IMG/VR virus record: IMGVR_UViG_3300028833_000111
Span: 1-64,000 of that record
Source of the DNA: a virus
Lineage: Duplodnaviria > Caudoviricetes
Length of the DNA stretch: 64,000 nt
Strand: one strand, 5' to 3'
The notes under the pieces were generated by a model. The model saw only the letters and a list, made by a program, of their open reading frames with translations, had not been told where the DNA came from and made no database searches. The translations under genes were made by a program, and so were the position numbers. Shown here in pieces: positions 14,307 through 27,249 of this stretch (positions are counted from its first letter, which is position 1; each line of letters starts with the position of its first letter).

Positions 14307-14349
14307 AAATATTTTTTCCCGGCTTAATAAAACCGGGAAAATATTTTTG
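14305..14349 (+). terminator. Intrinsic terminator-like inverted repeat
   Basis: aaaaatattttttcccgg...ccgggaaaatatttttg directly after stop 14306. Confidence 0.75.
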
Positions 14350-14375
14350 TTTTTAACATTTTTTTTGTATATTTG
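14346..14375 (+). promoter_or_regulatory. Bacteroidota-type promoter (TTTG -33 / TATATTTG -7)
   Basis: TTTG 14346-14349, 18-nt spacer, TATATTTG 14368-14375, upstream of SSB. Confidence 0.7.
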
Positions 14376-17258: not shown

Positions 17259-17286
17259 CGGGGTGGCTCTTAATTGAGTTACCCCG
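17259..17286. terminator. Hairpin between convergent recA-like and glycosyltransferase genes
   Basis: cggggtggctc-ttaatt-gagttaccccg; T-rich tail on the minus strand; overlaps the GT stop codon. Confidence 0.6.
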
Positions 17287-18874
17287 GTATGTATATACTA
17301 ATGTCACCTGTTTTACACTTTTTTCTTCTTCTAATAATTTCATCAAAATCAGCCTTTAGTTGCTCTACTGATTTTCGTGGTCTATCAATATTTCTTTTTA
17401 TTGTTGGAGTTTTTTTAAATTTATTATGCATTTTTTTCCATCTGAACCATCTAGATTCACAAGTTTTCTCATTTAGGTAAACAACTTTAACATCGTTATT
17501 TTTCCAACAAACATAATTGAATGATAATTGGTCTCTATGAGAACCATTTTTTATTTCCTCCCACCATTCATCCATTATTTTTATACATTTTTCATCATTG
17601 TGCTTTCTAAAAATGATATTGCTTTGAACTAGTCCATAGTCTTTTGGGAATTTTTCTTCCTTATAGCGTTTTATTTGTGGATTGGTGTTTTGTGAAGTGT
17701 CTTTTTTCATAGAAATCACAGCCCTTTCTTCTGCATATATACATTTTCTTGATGGATGTTTAGGGATTAATATTGATGCATCACTAACATCAACATTTTT
17801 AATAAAATCATTCATTTCTCCAATAATTTCAATATTTCCATCAATCCAAATTGAAATATCATAATCTTTAAGAATTAAATGTGGGTGCGTTTTTACATAT
17901 CTTTGTTTCTTTACCTGACTTAATTCATCTGTTTCTTTTGGTAATGGCATTATTTTCCAAACATCGTTCTGTAAATTAGTATTATCAGTAAAGCATATGT
18001 AATCAAAATCTTCTGAAACAATTTTAGGCGTTAATAAATTATCATAGTCACCAGTTATACAAGTATAAACTACTTTTTTTTTCTTAGAATTTTTTTTAAC
18101 TTCAATTGGCTTCTCTTTTTTAACCTCAGTTTTAAAATCCCATAGATTTTTATGTATTTCTAACCATTTTTCAATACTAATAGGATTATAATTATCATAT
18201 TTTTTGGCACTATCTACCCACGTTGCTGCTTTATAGTGTACAATATACTCATTATAGTTTATTTTCTTCCATTTCAAGCCTTTTCTAATGAATTGTTCAA
18301 AAAAATATGAACCAGTATCATAAGAATCACCATTTGCACTTAGTCCATACATATATTTGTCATTGAAATACCTTATGTTGTATTTTTTGCACAATTTAGT
18401 GTTAATATAACACATATAAGGCACTGCTCTTATCTTTGCTTTTGGATGAGAATCAGGCATTGGGTTTCTTGCTTTCCAAATTTCAGTTCCACCAACAAAA
18501 ACGAACTTTTCATCAATTAATTTTGAAATATCTTTTTTTAATAGTATATCAGAATCTAGAAGAAGAAAATTATCGTTTATAATATCCATACATTTATCAA
18601 TACTATAACAATGTTTAGCAGAACCATAATTGTTTCTAAATGCTGAAGATTTTATCCTATCTGGATATTTTTCAAGCCAAGTGCCAAAATCAATTATCTG
18701 TCCTTTAGTATTGTCAATTATTGTAACGTTGTCAAATTTAGCTGTAAACGGTAACTTATCACTATTATCAAAAATATAGATAATAGCGTCTTTAACGAAA
18801 AAATTAATACTCCTTACCAGACATTCAGTGAGATAAGGAGTATTGTAGTGTACAATAACAATATTTTTATTCAT
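17279..18874 (-). CDS. Two-domain glycosyltransferase (GT-A/GT2-like + DUF616-like)
   Basis: N-domain IVIVHYNTP..L..LVRS...FDNSD...LLLDSDILL (DxD). C-domain VVYTCITGDYDNL...ICFTD...SIWIDGN...HPSRKCIY.E...RDQLSFNYV. ATG 18874 follows the upstream stop at 18879. Confidence 0.8.
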   Translation of the reverse strand: MNKNIVIVHYNTPYLTECLVRSINFFVKDAIIYIFDNSDKLPFTAKFDNVTIIDNTKGQIIDFGTWLEKYPDRIKSSAFRNNYGSAKHCYSIDKCMDIINDNFLLLDSDILLKKDISKLIDEKFVFVGGTEIWKARNPMPDSHPKAKIRAVPYMCYINTKLCKKYNIRYFNDKYMYGLSANGDSYDTGSYFFEQFIRKGLKWKKINYNEYIVHYKAATWVDSAKKYDNYNPISIEKWLEIHKNLWDFKTEVKKEKPIEVKKNSKKKKVVYTCITGDYDNLLTPKIVSEDFDYICFTDNTNLQNDVWKIMPLPKETDELSQVKKQRYVKTHPHLILKDYDISIWIDGNIEIIGEMNDFIKNVDVSDASILIPKHPSRKCIYAEERAVISMKKDTSQNTNPQIKRYKEEKFPKDYGLVQSNIIFRKHNDEKCIKIMDEWWEEIKNGSHRDQLSFNYVCWKNNDVKVVYLNEKTCESRWFRWKKMHNKFKKTPTIKRNIDRPRKSVEQLKADFDEIIRRRKKCKTGDISIYIPG

Positions 18875-18878
18875 ATCA

Positions 18879-19649
18879 TTAATAGTCTTCATCTTCATCA
18901 TCTTCAAATCCACCTACATTTTCAAATTTTGGTTCGTAGAATAACTCAGGTTTACAATTAAGTCCTTTTTCAACTTTCTTTGTTTCTTGATTTATTTCAT
19001 TCATAAATAAATTAAGTTGTCTGTATTCTTCCATAGGTAGTAAAGGCTTATACTGAGTTTCATATGATTCTTTGTTTGTTTTCATAATGTCAGTAATTTT
19101 TGACCTTATGCTATCATATTTTGCCTTTTCTTTTGCAAATACAGGATTAAAAAAGAAGTCGTTCCAAATTGCAGGGTTTTGAAATAATTTTAAAACTGTT
19201 GTGTAAAAACAATGGAATTCATCGCCTCCACTTCCAGAATTTAAATCAGAATATTTCCAATCTTTTGTTCCAACCAATGAACGTGACCATTGATTGTCTA
19301 ATATGGCTAGATGTAATGGCCCGTTTGTTCTATCTGCTACATATGACAAATTTCTTAAAAATCCGCCACTTCCAAACATAAAATTGTTGAATTTTGACAA
19401 GTAAACTAAATATTCATTGCTGTGCTTGTTATATCCAACATTTTTCCAATCATTCCAAGCATCTTCCAACTCGTAATCTTTGTATCTGTCAGTATGAAGA
19501 TTTTCAATTTTTGCTAATTCTTGAAAGACTGGACTATAATCTGTTGTATGCCTACCACTTCCAAATACAGGTGCTTTTTGTATGGCTTCTTTTAAAATTT
19601 GTGATATAAATATATTTAATTTATTTTCTCTTATATTAATTTTTTTCAT
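18879..19649 (-). CDS. Hypothetical protein with MKKINIRE...ILKE leader (putative internal head protein)
   Basis: 256-aa ORF with the shared leader and an acidic tail FEDDEDEDY. Confidence 0.65.
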   Translation of the reverse strand: MKKINIRENKLNIFISQILKEAIQKAPVFGSGRHTTDYSPVFQELAKIENLHTDRYKDYELEDAWNDWKNVGYNKHSNEYLVYLSKFNNFMFGSGGFLRNLSYVADRTNGPLHLAILDNQWSRSLVGTKDWKYSDLNSGSGGDEFHCFYTTVLKLFQNPAIWNDFFFNPVFAKEKAKYDSIRSKITDIMKTNKESYETQYKPLLPMEEYRQLNLFMNEINQETKKVEKGLNCKPELFYEPKFENVGGFEDDEDEDY

Positions 19650-19661
19650 AATGTATCTAAA

Positions 19662-20678
19662 TTAAAAATCTTCATCGTCATCTTCTACTTGGTTCTTTAT
19701 ATTTGCCAAGAATCTGCCAAATAAATCTAGCCTACAAATAAATTTACCATCTGAATAGTAAACATAAAACGTATTTGTTTTTTGGTCTAATTTTAAAATG
19801 AAAGTTTCACCATCAACAACAACATTTGCTCTTCCTTGATTTGAGAACGTATCCGGAGCGTAATCAAACCAAACAGGGCTAATTACTCCTTGTGACAATG
19901 GTTTTTTCCTATATAAGAAATTATATTTGCCATCTTTTTTAACTTTTGCAAAACCATTTATGAAATAGTATGGAACTTCATCTAGTTCTTTCATAAGTTG
20001 GTAATTATGTTTACCAAGTTGCCATCTTAAGTCAACATCATCAATACCAAATTCTTGCATTGTTTTGCTTCCTTCAAATGGCTTCCAAGTTCTTCCACAG
20101 TCATTGCTTATTTCAACAGGGTATGCGTTTTTAAAGTCTTTAATAAAGCAAACCCAACCATCGTGGTTTCCTGAGAATATAAAGCCATTAATTTTATACA
20201 TTGCTTCTGGGTCATTATATCTCAAGTATTCGCATAAAGCAAGAGCACAAGTACTTGTTGTAAGAGTACCGTTAGTATTTATGTATTTTGAATAATAGTA
20301 ATCTTTCTTAATCTTTTCAAAAGAATTAGGAGAAAGGATTTTCTTTAATTGAAATTCAACACTTGGGTTTCCATAAACCTTTATAGCAATATCAGGGTCA
20401 TAAATAATGAAGTCTTTTAAACTCTTAACCTTTAATTTGAACATCATATTACCATATACACCTCTCGCATTCTGTCCTTGTGTTGAAAGTTTGTAAGTGC
20501 TATATATTCCTGCTCCATACATATTACCACCTCTAGAACCAGTAAAGAATCTCTCAAAACCAAGTTTGCTTATTCCTTCCTCTGCTGTTGGTGATGTTCC
20601 ATGATAAACGTAGAAGCCACCATCCCTTTCAAATTCTTCCTTTAATAATTTATCTGTTATTTTTCCAAACAATTTCAT
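19662..20678 (-). CDS. PARP/diphtheria-toxin-like (H-Y clade) ADP-ribosyltransferase with C-terminal WG-like repeats
   Basis: YVYHGTS....I...GF...GNMYGAGIYST...YG..MFKLKV; later FINGFAKVKKDGKYNFL and FSNQGRANV (WG-repeat-like). Confidence 0.75.
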   Translation of the reverse strand: MKLFGKITDKLLKEEFERDGGFYVYHGTSPTAEEGISKLGFERFFTGSRGGNMYGAGIYSTYKLSTQGQNARGVYGNMMFKLKVKSLKDFIIYDPDIAIKVYGNPSVEFQLKKILSPNSFEKIKKDYYYSKYINTNGTLTTSTCALALCEYLRYNDPEAMYKINGFIFSGNHDGWVCFIKDFKNAYPVEISNDCGRTWKPFEGSKTMQEFGIDDVDLRWQLGKHNYQLMKELDEVPYYFINGFAKVKKDGKYNFLYRKKPLSQGVISPVWFDYAPDTFSNQGRANVVVDGETFILKLDQKTNTFYVYYSDGKFICRLDLFGRFLANIKNQVEDDDEDF

Positions 20679-20685
20679 ATTGATA

Positions 20686-22179
20686 TTATTTTAATAAATT
20701 ATTAAAAATTTTAATGAATGATTCTCTAACGTTGTTCATCATTGCTTCTGCTTCTTGTTCTGTATTTGGTAATGCCTTATATTCTTCAACTGACATTCCT
20801 ATTGCGTTAAGCATCCACAATAATGTGCTATTGCTTACAGATTCAGTGATGCCATAAATTAGGTTAACTATATTTTCAAAATCTGAGCCAATGGCGTGGA
20901 ACACTGTTTTATTTAAACCTCCATAAGTTTTCAATTGACTCATGTTATTCATTAACAATCTGTCAGAATAGTCAGTATCAATTTGAAGCCTCTTTAAAAC
21001 AAAAGCAACCAAAACGCCTTTGTAAAGTTTTTTCTTGTTTTCATCAACCTCACGTAAAATTGTTTTTGAATTATCAGCAAGATATTCAATTGATTTTGTT
21101 ATTACGTTTCCTCCTGATTTTAATATATTTATTAAATTGGTATCGTTGGTTTTAACAGCGTGCGCTTCAAGGTTTTTAATAATTTCAGCATCAGACTTTT
21201 TGTTACCTGCACCAGTTGCTGCTGCTAATATATCTCCCCTCTTTTCATCTTCTGCTTTGTCTTTATCAGTATCAAAGTTACCATTGTTCATGTTGTCAAA
21301 ATCATAGTTACTTTGAGCACCTTGCTGCAAAACAGTTTCGCTATAGTCATAATAAGGGCTTATGCCATTTAATCCAAATTTGGTATTATTATATTGGCCG
21401 TAATCTTTATCGTTTGTGAGCGTATCAATTTGCTTTTGTATCATAGGATTTGAATCATATTGTGCCTGTGATACGCCATAGTCTTTCATGGTTTGTTTAA
21501 TGCTTCTGTGAACAACATCTTTAGGGTTTACAATATATAAAGGAGTAGCTCCAGGAACAACGTCTCTATTAAAGAATTTTGACCACTGTCTCTTTGTCGC
21601 CAAATAAGTAGGTTGCCCTCCTTTTCCAGCGTTAACCCACTGCGAAAGTACCATACATGTGTTTTTATAAGATAACTTTGTTACCTTACTTAATACATCG
21701 TCACCAACATATTGGATACTACCAACAGCATTAACGTAGCTTAAGAATTTAGGGTCGTTAAGGTTTTCTTCCATTGCCTTGATAATATCATCAATGAAAG
21801 AAGCGTTATCTGCATATATCTTACTTGATGCATCACTATTCAACACGTTTTGAACCTCTTGTTCAACGTTTGCTTCTAGAGCATTTAAATTGTTAATGTC
21901 ATATACATATCCACACTGCTCAAATGCATCCAAAATTCTTGGAAACATTTTTTTGCCATATATAAAGTCCTTATACTTATCAAGTTTTACTGCTTTAATA
22001 ACAGAATCACCATCTGCTTTAAGTCCTTTTGCTACACCTGAACCAGCAACAAGGTTTGCAGTCTTTTCGTCTGAATCAAAATAAAATAGAACGTGAGGCT
22101 CTATTTTAGTTGTTCCATCTTGTGATGTTACTTTATAGTTTGGTATATATGCAGCACCTATTTTTAATAATTTTGCCAT
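20686..22179 (-). CDS. Protein with central ArdC-N-like ssDNA-binding domain
   Basis: LSYKNTCMVLSQ...PTYLATKRQWSKFFNRDVVPGATPLYIVNP matches the ArdC-N pattern YS..N..L...Q...T.VA...QW....R.V..G...I.I..P. Confidence 0.6.
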   Translation of the reverse strand: MAKLLKIGAAYIPNYKVTSQDGTTKIEPHVLFYFDSDEKTANLVAGSGVAKGLKADGDSVIKAVKLDKYKDFIYGKKMFPRILDAFEQCGYVYDINNLNALEANVEQEVQNVLNSDASSKIYADNASFIDDIIKAMEENLNDPKFLSYVNAVGSIQYVGDDVLSKVTKLSYKNTCMVLSQWVNAGKGGQPTYLATKRQWSKFFNRDVVPGATPLYIVNPKDVVHRSIKQTMKDYGVSQAQYDSNPMIQKQIDTLTNDKDYGQYNNTKFGLNGISPYYDYSETVLQQGAQSNYDFDNMNNGNFDTDKDKAEDEKRGDILAAATGAGNKKSDAEIIKNLEAHAVKTNDTNLINILKSGGNVITKSIEYLADNSKTILREVDENKKKLYKGVLVAFVLKRLQIDTDYSDRLLMNNMSQLKTYGGLNKTVFHAIGSDFENIVNLIYGITESVSNSTLLWMLNAIGMSVEEYKALPNTEQEAEAMMNNVRESFIKIFNNLLK

Positions 22180-22197
22180 AATGTTTTATATTATATT

Positions 22198-23046
22198 TTA
22201 AGGATGTCTACGATTTCTATTCCTATTATTTTGTTGCTGTTGGTTATCTCTTCTTTGTATTGCTTTAGCAAATCTGGCTGCTTGTGCATCATATCCATTT
22301 GGCTTAAGTGAAGCATAAAGAAGAGTAGGCTTATCAATTTCAACACTTACTTTAGCGTTGTTTTTATAGAATTGGCTCAATCCATTAAGATTACCATTAA
22401 TAGGTGTGAAATCAAGTTTTTTAGCATCATCTTTGTTTGGAAGAATAACGTGTAAGCCATTATTCATACTTCTATATGCAAATAAAGGCGTAATGCCAGC
22501 GTCTTGAATAATCTTCATTGCCAAACTAATGTCGTTGAAATCATCAGAATCAATATCAACGAAGCATAAAGGTCTATCTGGGGCATCAAAACTTCTTCCA
22601 GCGGCATATGCCATAGGATTATTGCCAAAATGTTGCGCCATTCTCCTATTCTTAGCAAATCTGTCAGAGTAAATCTTTGTGTATTTGTCAATCATTGCTT
22701 TTGAGCGTGCATTAAGATATATGTAAGCCCTTGCTCCTAATTGCTGACAAAGAGTTTTAATAGAAGCCTCTGCATTGTTAAACTCGTTCTCATCTTTAAA
22801 GTAGAATTGCTTGATGAATTGGCGTGAATCTAGCATATCAGGATTGTCCTTCTTACGTTTAATAAGTTCAACGAAATAAATTGTATCTCCAGGTTTCGTG
22901 AACTGTATAATTTCTCTTACATTTTGGAAATTATCAATCTCAACAGTACCATCTGGAGCTTCTGTTCTATCTTCGCCAATCATTTCATTGATAGATTGTC
23001 TTAAAGCATTTTTTATGATAGATTCAGTTATAATAACGTTTTTCAT
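22198..23046 (-). CDS. AEP (primase-polymerase) superfamily-like protein with N-terminal ITES...INE leader
   Basis: LCFVDIDSDD (motif I, hhDhD) and YRSMNNGLHVIL (motif II, S..G.H). Basic C-terminal tail. Confidence 0.6.
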   Translation of the reverse strand: MKNVIITESIIKNALRQSINEMIGEDRTEAPDGTVEIDNFQNVREIIQFTKPGDTIYFVELIKRKKDNPDMLDSRQFIKQFYFKDENEFNNAEASIKTLCQQLGARAYIYLNARSKAMIDKYTKIYSDRFAKNRRMAQHFGNNPMAYAAGRSFDAPDRPLCFVDIDSDDFNDISLAMKIIQDAGITPLFAYRSMNNGLHVILPNKDDAKKLDFTPINGNLNGLSQFYKNNAKVSVEIDKPTLLYASLKPNGYDAQAARFAKAIQRRDNQQQQNNRNRNRRHP

Positions 23047-24262: not shown

Positions 24263-24296
24263 AAAAAAGAGTGGTTTTTTTAGTCACTCTTTTTTT
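24263..24296 (+). terminator. Intrinsic terminator
   Basis: aaaaaagagtg...cactctttttt after the neck gene. Confidence 0.75.
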
Positions 24297-24323
24297 GTTT
24301 TTTAACAATTTTTTGTATATTTG
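24294..24323 (+). promoter_or_regulatory. Bacteroidota-type promoter (TTTG / TATATTTG)
   Basis: TTTG 24294-24297, 18-nt spacer, TATATTTG 24316-24323; near-identical to the 14346 promoter. Confidence 0.7.
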
Positions 24324-24337
24324 TAAAAAGTACATGT

Positions 24338-24994
24338 ATGATTAGTAATAGAAAAAATGATATGGCTGTAGAAAGAGAGATTGCAGCATTTTTAGATAAG
24401 AATTTATATGAAAATAAAGAACTTTTTACAGAATATGCCAGAACAGATGGAAAAGAAGAGCAACTTTCAGGCTCTGATTTACTTTTAAGCACCACAAATG
24501 GTAAATTAAATCGTTCAGTTATTGATGAAAAGGTTGCAAAAAATTACGCTAATAAAATTCTTAACACTTTTTCACTAGAATTATCATTTTTGAGTAAAAA
24601 TGGTTTAAAAAGGTGCGGATGGCTGATTGATACAACAAAAAAAACAGAATATTACCTATTTGGGTGGATTTTAGAGGCTGATATACCTTATATAGAGAGT
24701 AAAGAATGGTACGATACAGATAAAATTGACAGAAATAATATCAAAAAACTAGAATGGGCGTTAGTGAAGCGTGATAAGATAATGAAATTTTTAGAAGAAC
24801 GTGGTTGGACTCTTGAAATGTTGGCAAAACAAGACGAACAAATTAGAAAAAGAGGGTTTGTTAAAACAAAAGAATTTATAAATGATGTTCGTTTTAGTTA
24901 TAGTGATGCTTATATTGAAAAGCCAATCAATTTACTACTAAAAAAAGAGACTTATCTGAAATTAAGCGAACTAAATGGTATAATAAATGGCTAA
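24338..24994 (+). CDS. Putative PD-(D/E)XK nuclease-fold protein
   Basis: E.EI...LD...EQLSGSDLLL...VIDEK pattern. Confidence 0.45.
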   Translation: MISNRKNDMAVEREIAAFLDKNLYENKELFTEYARTDGKEEQLSGSDLLLSTTNGKLNRSVIDEKVAKNYANKILNTFSLELSFLSKNGLKRCGWLIDTTKKTEYYLFGWILEADIPYIESKEWYDTDKIDRNNIKKLEWALVKRDKIMKFLEERGWTLEMLAKQDEQIRKRGFVKTKEFINDVRFSYSDAYIEKPINLLLKKETYLKLSELNGIING

Positions 24995-25382
24995 AAAAGC
25001 AGAAAAAAAAGAAAACTTTAAAGTAGTAATCGCTGGTTCAAGAGGATTTAGTAATTACAAGTTACTTTATGAAAAATGTAATGATATTTTGCGTGAAAAA
25101 AGCAAAACTCACAATATAATTGTTGTAAGCGGACACGCAAAAGGTGCTGATACTCTTGCTGAAAAGTATGCTAATGATAAGGGGTTTGACCTGGAGATAT
25201 ACCCAGCTGATTGGAAGAAATTAGGAAAGTCGGCAGGGTTCAGAAGAAATGAACAAATGGCTGAAGTTGCTGATGGATTGATTGCTTTTTGGGATGGGAA
25301 GTCTCACGGAACACAGCACATGATTAAAATTGCAGGAGAAAAAGGAATTAATACAAGAGTCGTGAAATATTTGGAATTATGA
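24987..25382 (+). CDS. YspA/DUF2493 SLOG-family protein
   Basis: VVIAGSRGF, VVSGHAKGADTLAEKYA, PADW...GKSAGFRRNEQM, AFWDGKSHGT.HMI. Confidence 0.85.
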   Translation: MAKKAEKKENFKVVIAGSRGFSNYKLLYEKCNDILREKSKTHNIIVVSGHAKGADTLAEKYANDKGFDLEIYPADWKKLGKSAGFRRNEQMAEVADGLIAFWDGKSHGTQHMIKIAGEKGINTRVVKYLEL

Positions 25383-25624
25383 TTGAAGAATATGATTTGA
25401 TAAAACATATAGACAAAAATGTAGGTTCCAATGGCTATTCTCACGATAAAATTTATATGTATTTTGGAACGTGTAGAATGAAAGACATTTCAACTGATAA
25501 ATGGTATAATGCTTGTATGTACAGAGAGTGGAGCAAAGAAGCAGACAATACTATAGGAGATACGTTTGTGAAAGAAAAAGAATCATTTGAAAAAGAGTTT
25601 AAAGTTTATGAAGCAAAAATATAA
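25379..25624 (+). CDS. Small hypothetical protein (DUF1653-like)
   Basis: Y.Y.G....D.....ACMY........FV.E...F...F pattern. Confidence 0.45.
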   Translation: MIEEYDLIKHIDKNVGSNGYSHDKIYMYFGTCRMKDISTDKWYNACMYREWSKEADNTIGDTFVKEKESFEKEFKVYEAKI

Positions 25625-25813
25625 GTATGAAAGTTATAATTATTCTATCATAGGAATAAAAAAATATCTAAAAGTTACATACTCCCCGACAACATTGGGA
25701 GATATACGTGCATTCATAACATTGATGCCGAAAGAGAGTTAACGGCAATGCTTTCAGGGAAAATAGCAGCAGAAATAGACAGACAAATTTTAGAATATTT
25801 AAATTATGAATAA
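25608..25813 (+). pseudogene. Frameshifted mini-gene homologous to a segment of a gp23-type major capsid protein
   Basis: Frame 0 from ATG 25608: MKQKYKYESYNYSIIGIKKYLKVTYSPTTLGDIRAF (stop 25740-25742). The -1 frame from 25715 reads HNIDAERELTAMLSGKIAAEIDRQILEYLNYE* (stop 25811-25813). Not listed in the ORF track. Confidence 0.7.
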
Positions 25814-26075
25814 ATTTAAGTTTGAAAAATACAATTATTCAAGTGTTTTAAAGAAAAAATTACATTATAGATATATTGTATCAAATATTGAGTATGAATC
25901 ACGTAGGACTTTGTTTGGCGAAACTGATAAAGATATTCTGAAAGACTATATGGATTTAATGAAAAAATATTGTAATCAAAAAAAGTTTGAAGATTTTGAT
26001 GTAGAATTAGAAGCCGAAATAATTATGCCTCATAAAACATATAAATTTAATGAAACAAATTGTAAAAAAGAGTAG
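25806..26075 (+). CDS. Hypothetical protein
   Basis: 89 aa; N-terminus KFKFEKYNYS resembles KYKYESYNYS of the preceding mini-gene. Confidence 0.6.
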   Translation: MNKFKFEKYNYSSVLKKKLHYRYIVSNIEYESRRTLFGETDKDILKDYMDLMKKYCNQKKFEDFDVELEAEIIMPHKTYKFNETNCKKE

Positions 26076-27213
26076 AGCAGAAGCAAATAACATATCAAAT
26101 GAACAACTGATATATACTTTATTGGTTGATGGTAATAGTTTGCTTAAAATGTCATTGGTTGATAAAAGAATGAACCAAAATGGCGAAGAATATGGTGCTG
26201 TTTTTGTATTTTTAAGGCAATTAGGTCAACTTTTACAGAAAAAGGATTTCAAATATTGTGTTGTTTGTTGGGACGGTGATGGCTCTGGGGTATTAAGATA
26301 CAATTATTATAATGATTATAAGGCTAATCGTGATAAACATTATGAACTTATAAGTGGAGAGTCAGATTATGATAAGGGTATAAGGGAGTATATGAAAAAG
26401 GTATATGCATACCATAACAAAAATAAGAAGGAAGTAAAACGTGCTGAGACTGATGATGAAAATTTCCAAAGGCAGCGTTTACTAATTCAAGAAATTCTTG
26501 AAAACTTATATATAAGACAGTTCATATATGACGATGTAGAAGGTGATGACCTTATAGCTTATTATGTTCACAATAAGAGACCTAATGAGAGAGTAGTAAT
26601 TGTAAGTGGTGACAGAGACCTTACACAATTAATAAACGATGAAGTTTGCCAATACATACCATCACTTAGGAAATTCATAAGTCCAAAAAATTCTGTTGAG
26701 GAACTTGGAATTACTCATGAGAATACATTAGTGAAGAAAATATTGTGTGGTGATGCTTCTGATAATATAAAAGGTATTAAGGGAATTGGCGAACAAACAT
26801 TGTTGAAACTATTTCCAGAAATGAAGGATAAGAAAACATCTTTAGAGGCTGTTATTGAGCGTTCAAAAGAGTTATTGGAAGAGAGGAAGCAAGCCAAGAA
26901 AAAACCTCTTAAATCGCTTGAAAATATTGTTAATTGTGTAACTGATGGTATACAGGGCAAAGACATATATAATATCAATAAGAAGATTATTGACTTATCA
27001 GAACCTTTGCTAACAGATGAGGCTCGTAAAGGCCTAAAAGAAGAGTCTTATGCCCCATTAAACTGCGAAGGAAGGGATATAAAAAATGTGTATGATATTG
27101 TGTATCAGAATGGTATGTATGATTTAACAGACGAAAAAATATTTGGAAACCTTTTCGGAATGTATGAAAAGATAATAAAAACAGAAAAAGAATTTTCTAA
27201 AAAAACAGCATAA
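26050..27213 (+). CDS. 5'-3' exonuclease / flap endonuclease (T4 RNase H-like)
   Basis: LLVDGNSL, YKANR, EGDDLI, SGDRDLTQL, GDASDNIKGIKGIG. Confidence 0.92.
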   Translation: MKQIVKKSRAEANNISNEQLIYTLLVDGNSLLKMSLVDKRMNQNGEEYGAVFVFLRQLGQLLQKKDFKYCVVCWDGDGSGVLRYNYYNDYKANRDKHYELISGESDYDKGIREYMKKVYAYHNKNKKEVKRAETDDENFQRQRLLIQEILENLYIRQFIYDDVEGDDLIAYYVHNKRPNERVVIVSGDRDLTQLINDEVCQYIPSLRKFISPKNSVEELGITHENTLVKKILCGDASDNIKGIKGIGEQTLLKLFPEMKDKKTSLEAVIERSKELLEERKQAKKKPLKSLENIVNCVTDGIQGKDIYNINKKIIDLSEPLLTDEARKGLKEESYAPLNCEGRDIKNVYDIVYQNGMYDLTDEKIFGNLFGMYEKIIKTEKEFSKKTA

Positions 27214-27218
27214 TTTTT

Positions 27219-27249
27219 TTTGTTTTTTGGAAAAAGTTTTGTATATTTG
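27219..27249 (+). promoter_or_regulatory. Bacteroidota-type promoter (TTTG / TATATTTG)
   Basis: TTTG 27219-27222, 19-nt spacer, TATATTTG 27242-27249. Confidence 0.65.

Follow-up and report, generated by a model that had tools for sequence, protein, structure and literature searches.

A capsid-derived small gene of rumen jumbo phages and its frameshifted copy in a viral contig

Phage satellites encode capsid-redirecting proteins, among them Ccm of the PICIs, CpmB of the SaPIs and Sid of P4. These are accessory proteins that resemble or bind the capsid or scaffold of the helper and so interfere with assembly. They are, however, encoded by satellites and consist of whole domains or scaffold mimics, whereas the gene described here lies in the phage's own genome and carries a 47-residue capsid fragment. 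On the host side, the Gol peptide of T4 triggers Lit, an abortive-infection sensor; the Gol region is a part of gp23 other than the segment considered below. The triggers of Lit and of CapRel SJ46 illustrate that immune sensors can read short capsid segments or small phage proteins. In the case of CapRel SJ46, both the capsid protein and Gp54 are sensed (PMC13728456). Bacterial immunity is repeatedly triggered by capsid proteins, whose conserved surfaces phages cannot easily alter. The literature that we searched described no phage-encoded capsid-fragment antagonist and held nothing relevant on capsid-fragment decoys or partial duplications of gp23. Here we report a capsid-derived family of small proteins that is previously undescribed and clade-restricted, together with a frameshifted copy of its gene.

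The locus and its capsid homology

The window, that is, the whole stretch of 64,000 nucleotides that was analysed, takes up the first 64 kb of an IMG/VR viral contig that is 94.8 kb long and has a CheckV completeness of 30%. Its relatives are jumbo phages of 317-412 kb from gut or rumen metagenomes of sheep, cattle and goats. The frameshifted mini-gene is held in a run of plus-strand genes at 24338-27213, which consists, in order, of a 218-aa ORF, a SLOG/YspA-like gene, an 81-aa ORF, the mini-gene, gene X (89 aa) and an rnh/FEN-like gene (387 aa). The features of this region are:

24263..24295, plus strand: terminator-like hairpin with T-run, ending the preceding 386-aa gene
24294..24323, plus strand: Bacteroidota-type promoter-like element (TTTG, 18 nt, TATATTTG) preceding the operon at 24338-27213
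24987..25382, plus strand: SLOG/YspA-like gene, 131 aa (Pfam PF10686, E 1.9e-16)
25379..25624, plus strand: 81-aa ORF, missing from that position in the relatives L002, L003 and L011
25608..25661, plus strand: mini-gene codons 1-18, a 5′ module paralogous to the start of gene X
25658..25664, plus strand: A7 run, neither at the junction nor conserved in relatives
25662..25715, plus strand: mini-gene codons 19-36 in frame 0, capsid-derived strand and short P-domain helix
25713..25715, plus strand: site of a 1-nt deletion, TTC in the window against TTTC in L003 in the DNA alignment
25715..25813, plus strand: mini-gene codons 37-68 in the -1 frame, capsid-derived part of the spine helix (to 25801), a short tail and the original stop
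25806..26075, plus strand: gene X, 89 aa, the donor type of the mini-gene N-terminus
26050..27213, plus strand: rnh/FEN-like gene, 387 aa, the synteny anchor for locus comparison

The mini-gene starts at ATG 25608, overlapping the stop codon of the upstream ORF at 25622-25624, and this start opens an ORF of 44 codons. Frame 0 supplies the 36 codons that end at 25715; the -1 frame, which is open from 25640, contributes, from 25715 onwards, 32 more codons to a TAA at 25811-25813, which overlaps the next gene, whose ATG is at 25806. Joining frame 0 (25608-25715) to the -1 frame (25715-25813) yields a peptide of 68 aa. A preliminary description of this DNA had put forward the same joined product, with operon-style overlaps with the stop at 25624 and the ATG at 25806, and on re-reading 25608-25813 we found its coordinates, frames and overlaps to be correct.

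That description had also put forward an alignment with T4 gp23 across the junction, and this was borne out by profile searches. The joined peptide matched the Pfam family Gp23 (PF07068) at 35.0 bits (E 1.4e-8), well above the curated gathering cut-off of 24.4 bits; residues 20-66 correspond to profile positions 149-195, so that the match spans the junction, while the -1 part by itself reached only 20.4 bits against Gp23. The joined peptide also matched PHROG_138, 'major head protein' (E 1.2e-8), and a profile of the mini-gene family matched residues 258-310 of T4 gp23 (6uzc) with an E of 3.8e-8. When the joined peptide was searched by tblastn against the whole 94.8 kb contig, no second capsid-like copy or other Gp23-like sequence was found, in agreement with the earlier remark that the mini-gene lies away from any capsid gene in the window. 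The capsid mimicry proposed for the product applies to the residues from about 19 onwards, but does not extend to the N-terminal 18, which are not capsid-derived.

Residues 19-65 of the window peptide are equivalent to residues 264-308 of T4 gp23, with the frameshift point between the equivalents of V281 and H282. Compared with residues 258-310 of T4 gp23 (PF07068), the mini-gene has the same strand, short P-domain helix, spine helix and head-length (ptg) cluster; in T4, the ptg mutations A268, A275, D285 and D287 fall within the mimicked segment (PMC9546572). In an AF2 model of low confidence (pLDDT 68), the strands span residues 4-10 and 19-25 and the helices residues 26-29 (short) and 38-65 (long), and the intact protein is predicted to be a beta-hairpin followed by a short helix and a long helix. 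A Foldseek search of this small, low-confidence model against the PDB gave no match. In contrast to T4 gp23, the mini-gene keeps only about 47 of the 376 profile positions, and its product is without the A domain, P-loop, N-arm and insertion domain and takes its N-terminus from another gene. Of a full HK97-type fold with A and P domains (~376 positions), only positions 149-195 were matched, and the mini protein cannot be a shell-forming capsid protein.

A host-type promoter had been proposed upstream of the operon, and a Bacteroidota-like element is indeed present at 24294-24323, where TTTG, 18 nt and TATATTTG fit the Bacteroidota promoter consensus. Near-identical copies of the element begin at 14346 and 27219, each of them intergenic and before a plus-strand gene. 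The three sites (14346-14375, 24294-24323 and 27219-27249) have in common TTTG, a T-rich spacer and TTTTGTATATTTG, and are candidate Bacteroidota-type early promoters. A sigma-70 promoter scan was not above shuffles, and the TATTTATA motif was not enriched and occurred nowhere near the mini-gene. Since the count of the promoter pattern alone was not above chance, we regard early expression of the mini-gene operon from a host promoter as no more than plausible.

In relatives, the mini-gene lies directly 3′ of the SLOG/YspA-like gene. A database protein labelled ASCH-like by JGI (P0045) has a C-terminus related to the 81-aa ORF (25379-25624) fused in frame to a mini-gene. A search of the ESM Atlas with gene X returned sub-threshold hypothetical clusters only. 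In the distant relative G002, the interval at 253.5-271.9 kb has the capsid gene between a UvsX-like gene and the conserved 386-aa gene; the same interval in the window (17279-23046, minus strand) is occupied by a five-gene minus-strand operon with a glycosyltransferase and others, the capsid gene being elsewhere. Immediately downstream of the G002 capsid gene is a 433-aa zinc-ribbon-rich ORF (L014:3-1301, minus strand) with a putative homing-endonuclease-type look.

Members of the family and their origin

Homologues were sought by tblastn of the joined peptide in loci that had been fetched via the rnh-like gene. This revealed four same-locus homologues, each read in a single frame: L003 (88 aa, 72% identical), L011 (92 aa), L002 (97 aa) and L208 (98 aa). 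Intact orthologues are thus present at the same locus in related genomes, a point on which the preliminary description had proposed a check. A database search with the homologue alignment extended the family to at least 95 protein clusters, in which lengths range over 61-170 aa and a precomputed PF07068 match is present in most cases; the intact single-frame homologues measure 67-100 aa, and there are database members on contigs of 277-415 kb. Intact short forms of 67-71 aa (P0055, P0051, P0047, P0052 and P0073) have the same ILEYL..YE tail as the window copy, and because they end alike, the absence of a longer C-tail from the window copy represents an established variant rather than decay. 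Another member, P0042, has ~90% identity to the window copy in its first 50 residues, and its reading frame continues without a break across the shift site.

The mini-gene is absent from five complete relatives (387-412 kb), and among 80 rnh loci surveyed it was present only in the clade with at least 76% rnh identity. The mini-gene locus behaves as a variable cassette. A tblastn search of 50,697 deposited phage genomes returned annotated capsid genes only, in one place per record, and a related-locus search with the mini-protein alignment was dominated by full-length capsid genes. In runs X5 and X6, flanks that are 94-98% identical to the window enclose a divergent mini-gene allele at ~25611-25785, the loose end of which reads M-R-K-F-K-Y-E-K-Y-D-Y.

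A Gp23-type capsid gene of 650-666 aa is found in the more distant relatives G002-G004, and IMG/VR holds 509 related capsid genes. In 80 related capsid proteins, the segment RKLRATWS...EIDREILRDL is almost invariant. The mini proteins correspond to residues about 436-500 of these 80 proteins at 44-53% identity overall, while the short forms reach 72-75% identity to the capsid over residues 18-64 (47 residues). From these alignments, the donor is a Gp23-type capsid of the rumen jumbo-phage lineage and not that of T4. Such genes (for example L014:1453-3405, 650 aa) represent the direct donor lineage, with identity of up to 72-75% over the common segment, but the mini-gene occupies a locus of its own; in G001, some 38 kb separate it from the probable capsid gene. 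Comparison of mini-genes with capsid genes shows saturation at synonymous sites (pS 0.83-1.0) and a pN of 0.27-0.41, which indicates that the capsid-derived copy is old and has not been homogenised, and that there is no ongoing gene conversion between the two.

The start of the mini-gene has a different source, since 8-12 of its first 17 residues are identical to X of the same genome, as against 0-1 of 17 to the capsid protein. Because the N-terminus matches X and the remainder matches the capsid, the ORF is a chimera of an X start and a capsid fragment. We propose that about 141 nt of the lineage's own Gp23-type capsid gene came to lie behind a second copy of roughly the first 18 codons of X and were fused to it. 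The capsid piece provides most of the spine helix, together with the short P-domain helix and the strand that leaves the linker equivalent to the E-loop. The family would then be a clean example of gene birth, in which a fragment of a structural gene was fused to the start of a neighbour. G007, which has no mini-gene, also encodes an X-type N-terminus. YNYS is found in both the mini-gene and the X of the window and YDYS in all others, and the N for D in both window copies suggests a concerted change or gene conversion of the common 5′ module. Two or three small genes next to each other begin with the pattern K-[YF]-K-[YF]-E-x-Y-[DN]-Y-S (25608-25661, 25806-25860 and L208:1602-1748).

The 94.8 kb contig does not contain the phage's own capsid gene, and G001, a relative of 317 kb, lacks the gene as well. 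The sample of G001 did, however, yield a 35.9 kb contig with a full capsid gene, and this contig shares 295 bp with the end of G001 at 97% identity; we therefore rejected the idea that the capsid gene of G001 is split into dispersed pieces.

The one-base deletion in the window copy

The preliminary description had noticed a single missing base, for which it offered inactivation, recoding or an assembly error. Where L003 has GCATTTCATAAC in the DNA alignment, the window has GCATTCATAAC, which is one T short in the TTT run. The loss of one T from this run (25713-25715) breaks the mini-gene in the window phage: translation from ATG 25608 stops after 44 aa, leaving the helix part out of frame. In both run X1 and run X3, Logan contigs span 25502-26100 and agree with the window throughout (0 differences, 0 gaps), although these are contigs, in which a minority intact allele is invisible. 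X1 is possibly the source sample; X3 belongs to a different sample and study, so the disrupting mutation is verified in independent data at the level of contigs rather than raw reads. We consider that the window copy is probably a recently inactivated copy of a clade-restricted, capsid-derived small gene, as one of the options offered earlier had it, and the mini-gene is dispensable in the window phage.

That the gene is intact, and the base was dropped in sequencing or assembly, is very improbable. The low depth of the Logan contigs, about 6x per contig, would leave room for such an error, but the re-assemblies from two samples carry the same deletion, there is no long homopolymer around the site, and 3 contigs on record have the truncated ORF of 44 aa. 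No more credible is programmed -1 frameshifting or transcriptional slippage that restores the 68-aa protein in the window phage. This reading draws on the -1 frame, which is open up to the original stop, and on the in-phase A_AAA_AAA at 25658-25664, to which the preliminary description had pointed. The phase of that heptamer was given correctly, but the run lies 50 nt upstream of the frame change in the homology, and since frame-0 homology runs on to 25715, it is not the evolutionary junction. A slip at the A7 run would swap 17 homologous residues for unrelated ones; the run is not supported as a route into the homologous frame, and it is not conserved. The junction itself, GCA TTC ATA, has no slippery X_XXY_YYZ heptamer, and the RNA downstream of the shift has no structure beyond that of shuffled sequences (MFE -10.9 kcal/mol, z +0.54). 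Moreover, L002, L003, L011, L208 and all database members are read in a single frame. A genuine recent loss of function is thus indicated by the contigs that reproduce the deletion, the junction that is not slippery, the unconserved A7 run and the missing downstream fold. After the break, both halves of the window copy still look constrained, each with a purifying signal in its own frame, which would fit a very recent break.

Selection and possible function

In all ten pairwise comparisons, pN/pS was 0.33-0.58 (Fisher p 2e-3 to 8e-10), and the purifying selection in relatives on which the earlier idea of a decoy depended is thus present. The mini-gene evolves faster than the neighbouring enzymes, at 52-72% as against 74-85% amino-acid identity. 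It is improbable that the family is a neutral, functionless relic of illegitimate recombination. Its patchy distribution, the internal deletion variants P0042, P0043, P0081 and P0069, and the loss of the gene in the window would all suit a relic; however, at 49-72% amino-acid identity the reading frames have remained open in an AT-rich genome, all ten pairs have a pN/pS significantly below 1, and residues are retained even though synonymous sites relative to the donor gene are saturated. If it has a function, the intact protein would mimic a nearly invariant capsid surface and bind whatever normally recognises newly made capsid protein. We tentatively favour a host factor or an immune sensor as its target, which would make the protein a counter-defence antagonist, and place the capsid protein or its assembly partners as a second and rather unlikely choice. 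In the latter case, the intact protein would modulate or poison capsid assembly, affecting head size or the assembly of a co-infecting relative. The segment lends some colour to this, as it corresponds to T4 gp23 264-308 with the head-length cluster A268, A275, D285 and D287 (PMC9546572), and since it is nearly invariant across the 80 relatives, a protein binding it would act broadly. We nevertheless think such an effect on assembly doubtful, because the mini-gene lies in a non-structural operon behind a host-type promoter rather than in the head module, many complete relatives lack it, and it would affect the phage's own capsid too. The accessory distribution, the fast evolution, the position after the SLOG gene under a host-type promoter, and the frequent variants and losses favour a host-directed mimic over an assembly modulator.

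It is possible, then, that the family consists of stand-alone copies of the most invariant part of the phages' own capsid protein, the short P-domain helix and spine helix of the T4 head-length region, which would be made from an early host-type promoter, occupy whatever reads this surface and either blunt capsid-sensing immunity or disturb the assembly of capsids by co-infecting relatives. As the mimic of an immune trigger, such a protein could, alternatively, activate the sensor instead of blocking it. If the proposal is true, a selected, free-standing copy of a capsid surface would be a new kind of tool for counter-defence or assembly interference, and natural variants are on offer for testing it, namely the long form, the short form, the internal deletions and the null allele in the window.

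Capsid-fragment genes may, judging from their sequences, be a recurrent theme in this clade. G001, the contig of L011, encodes a stand-alone 171-aa protein like capsid residues 1-86, the N-terminal region (L022:1207-1722, minus strand), and a 370-aa protein like capsid residues 257-385, the insertion domain, at 35-38% identity (L019:1303-2415, minus strand).
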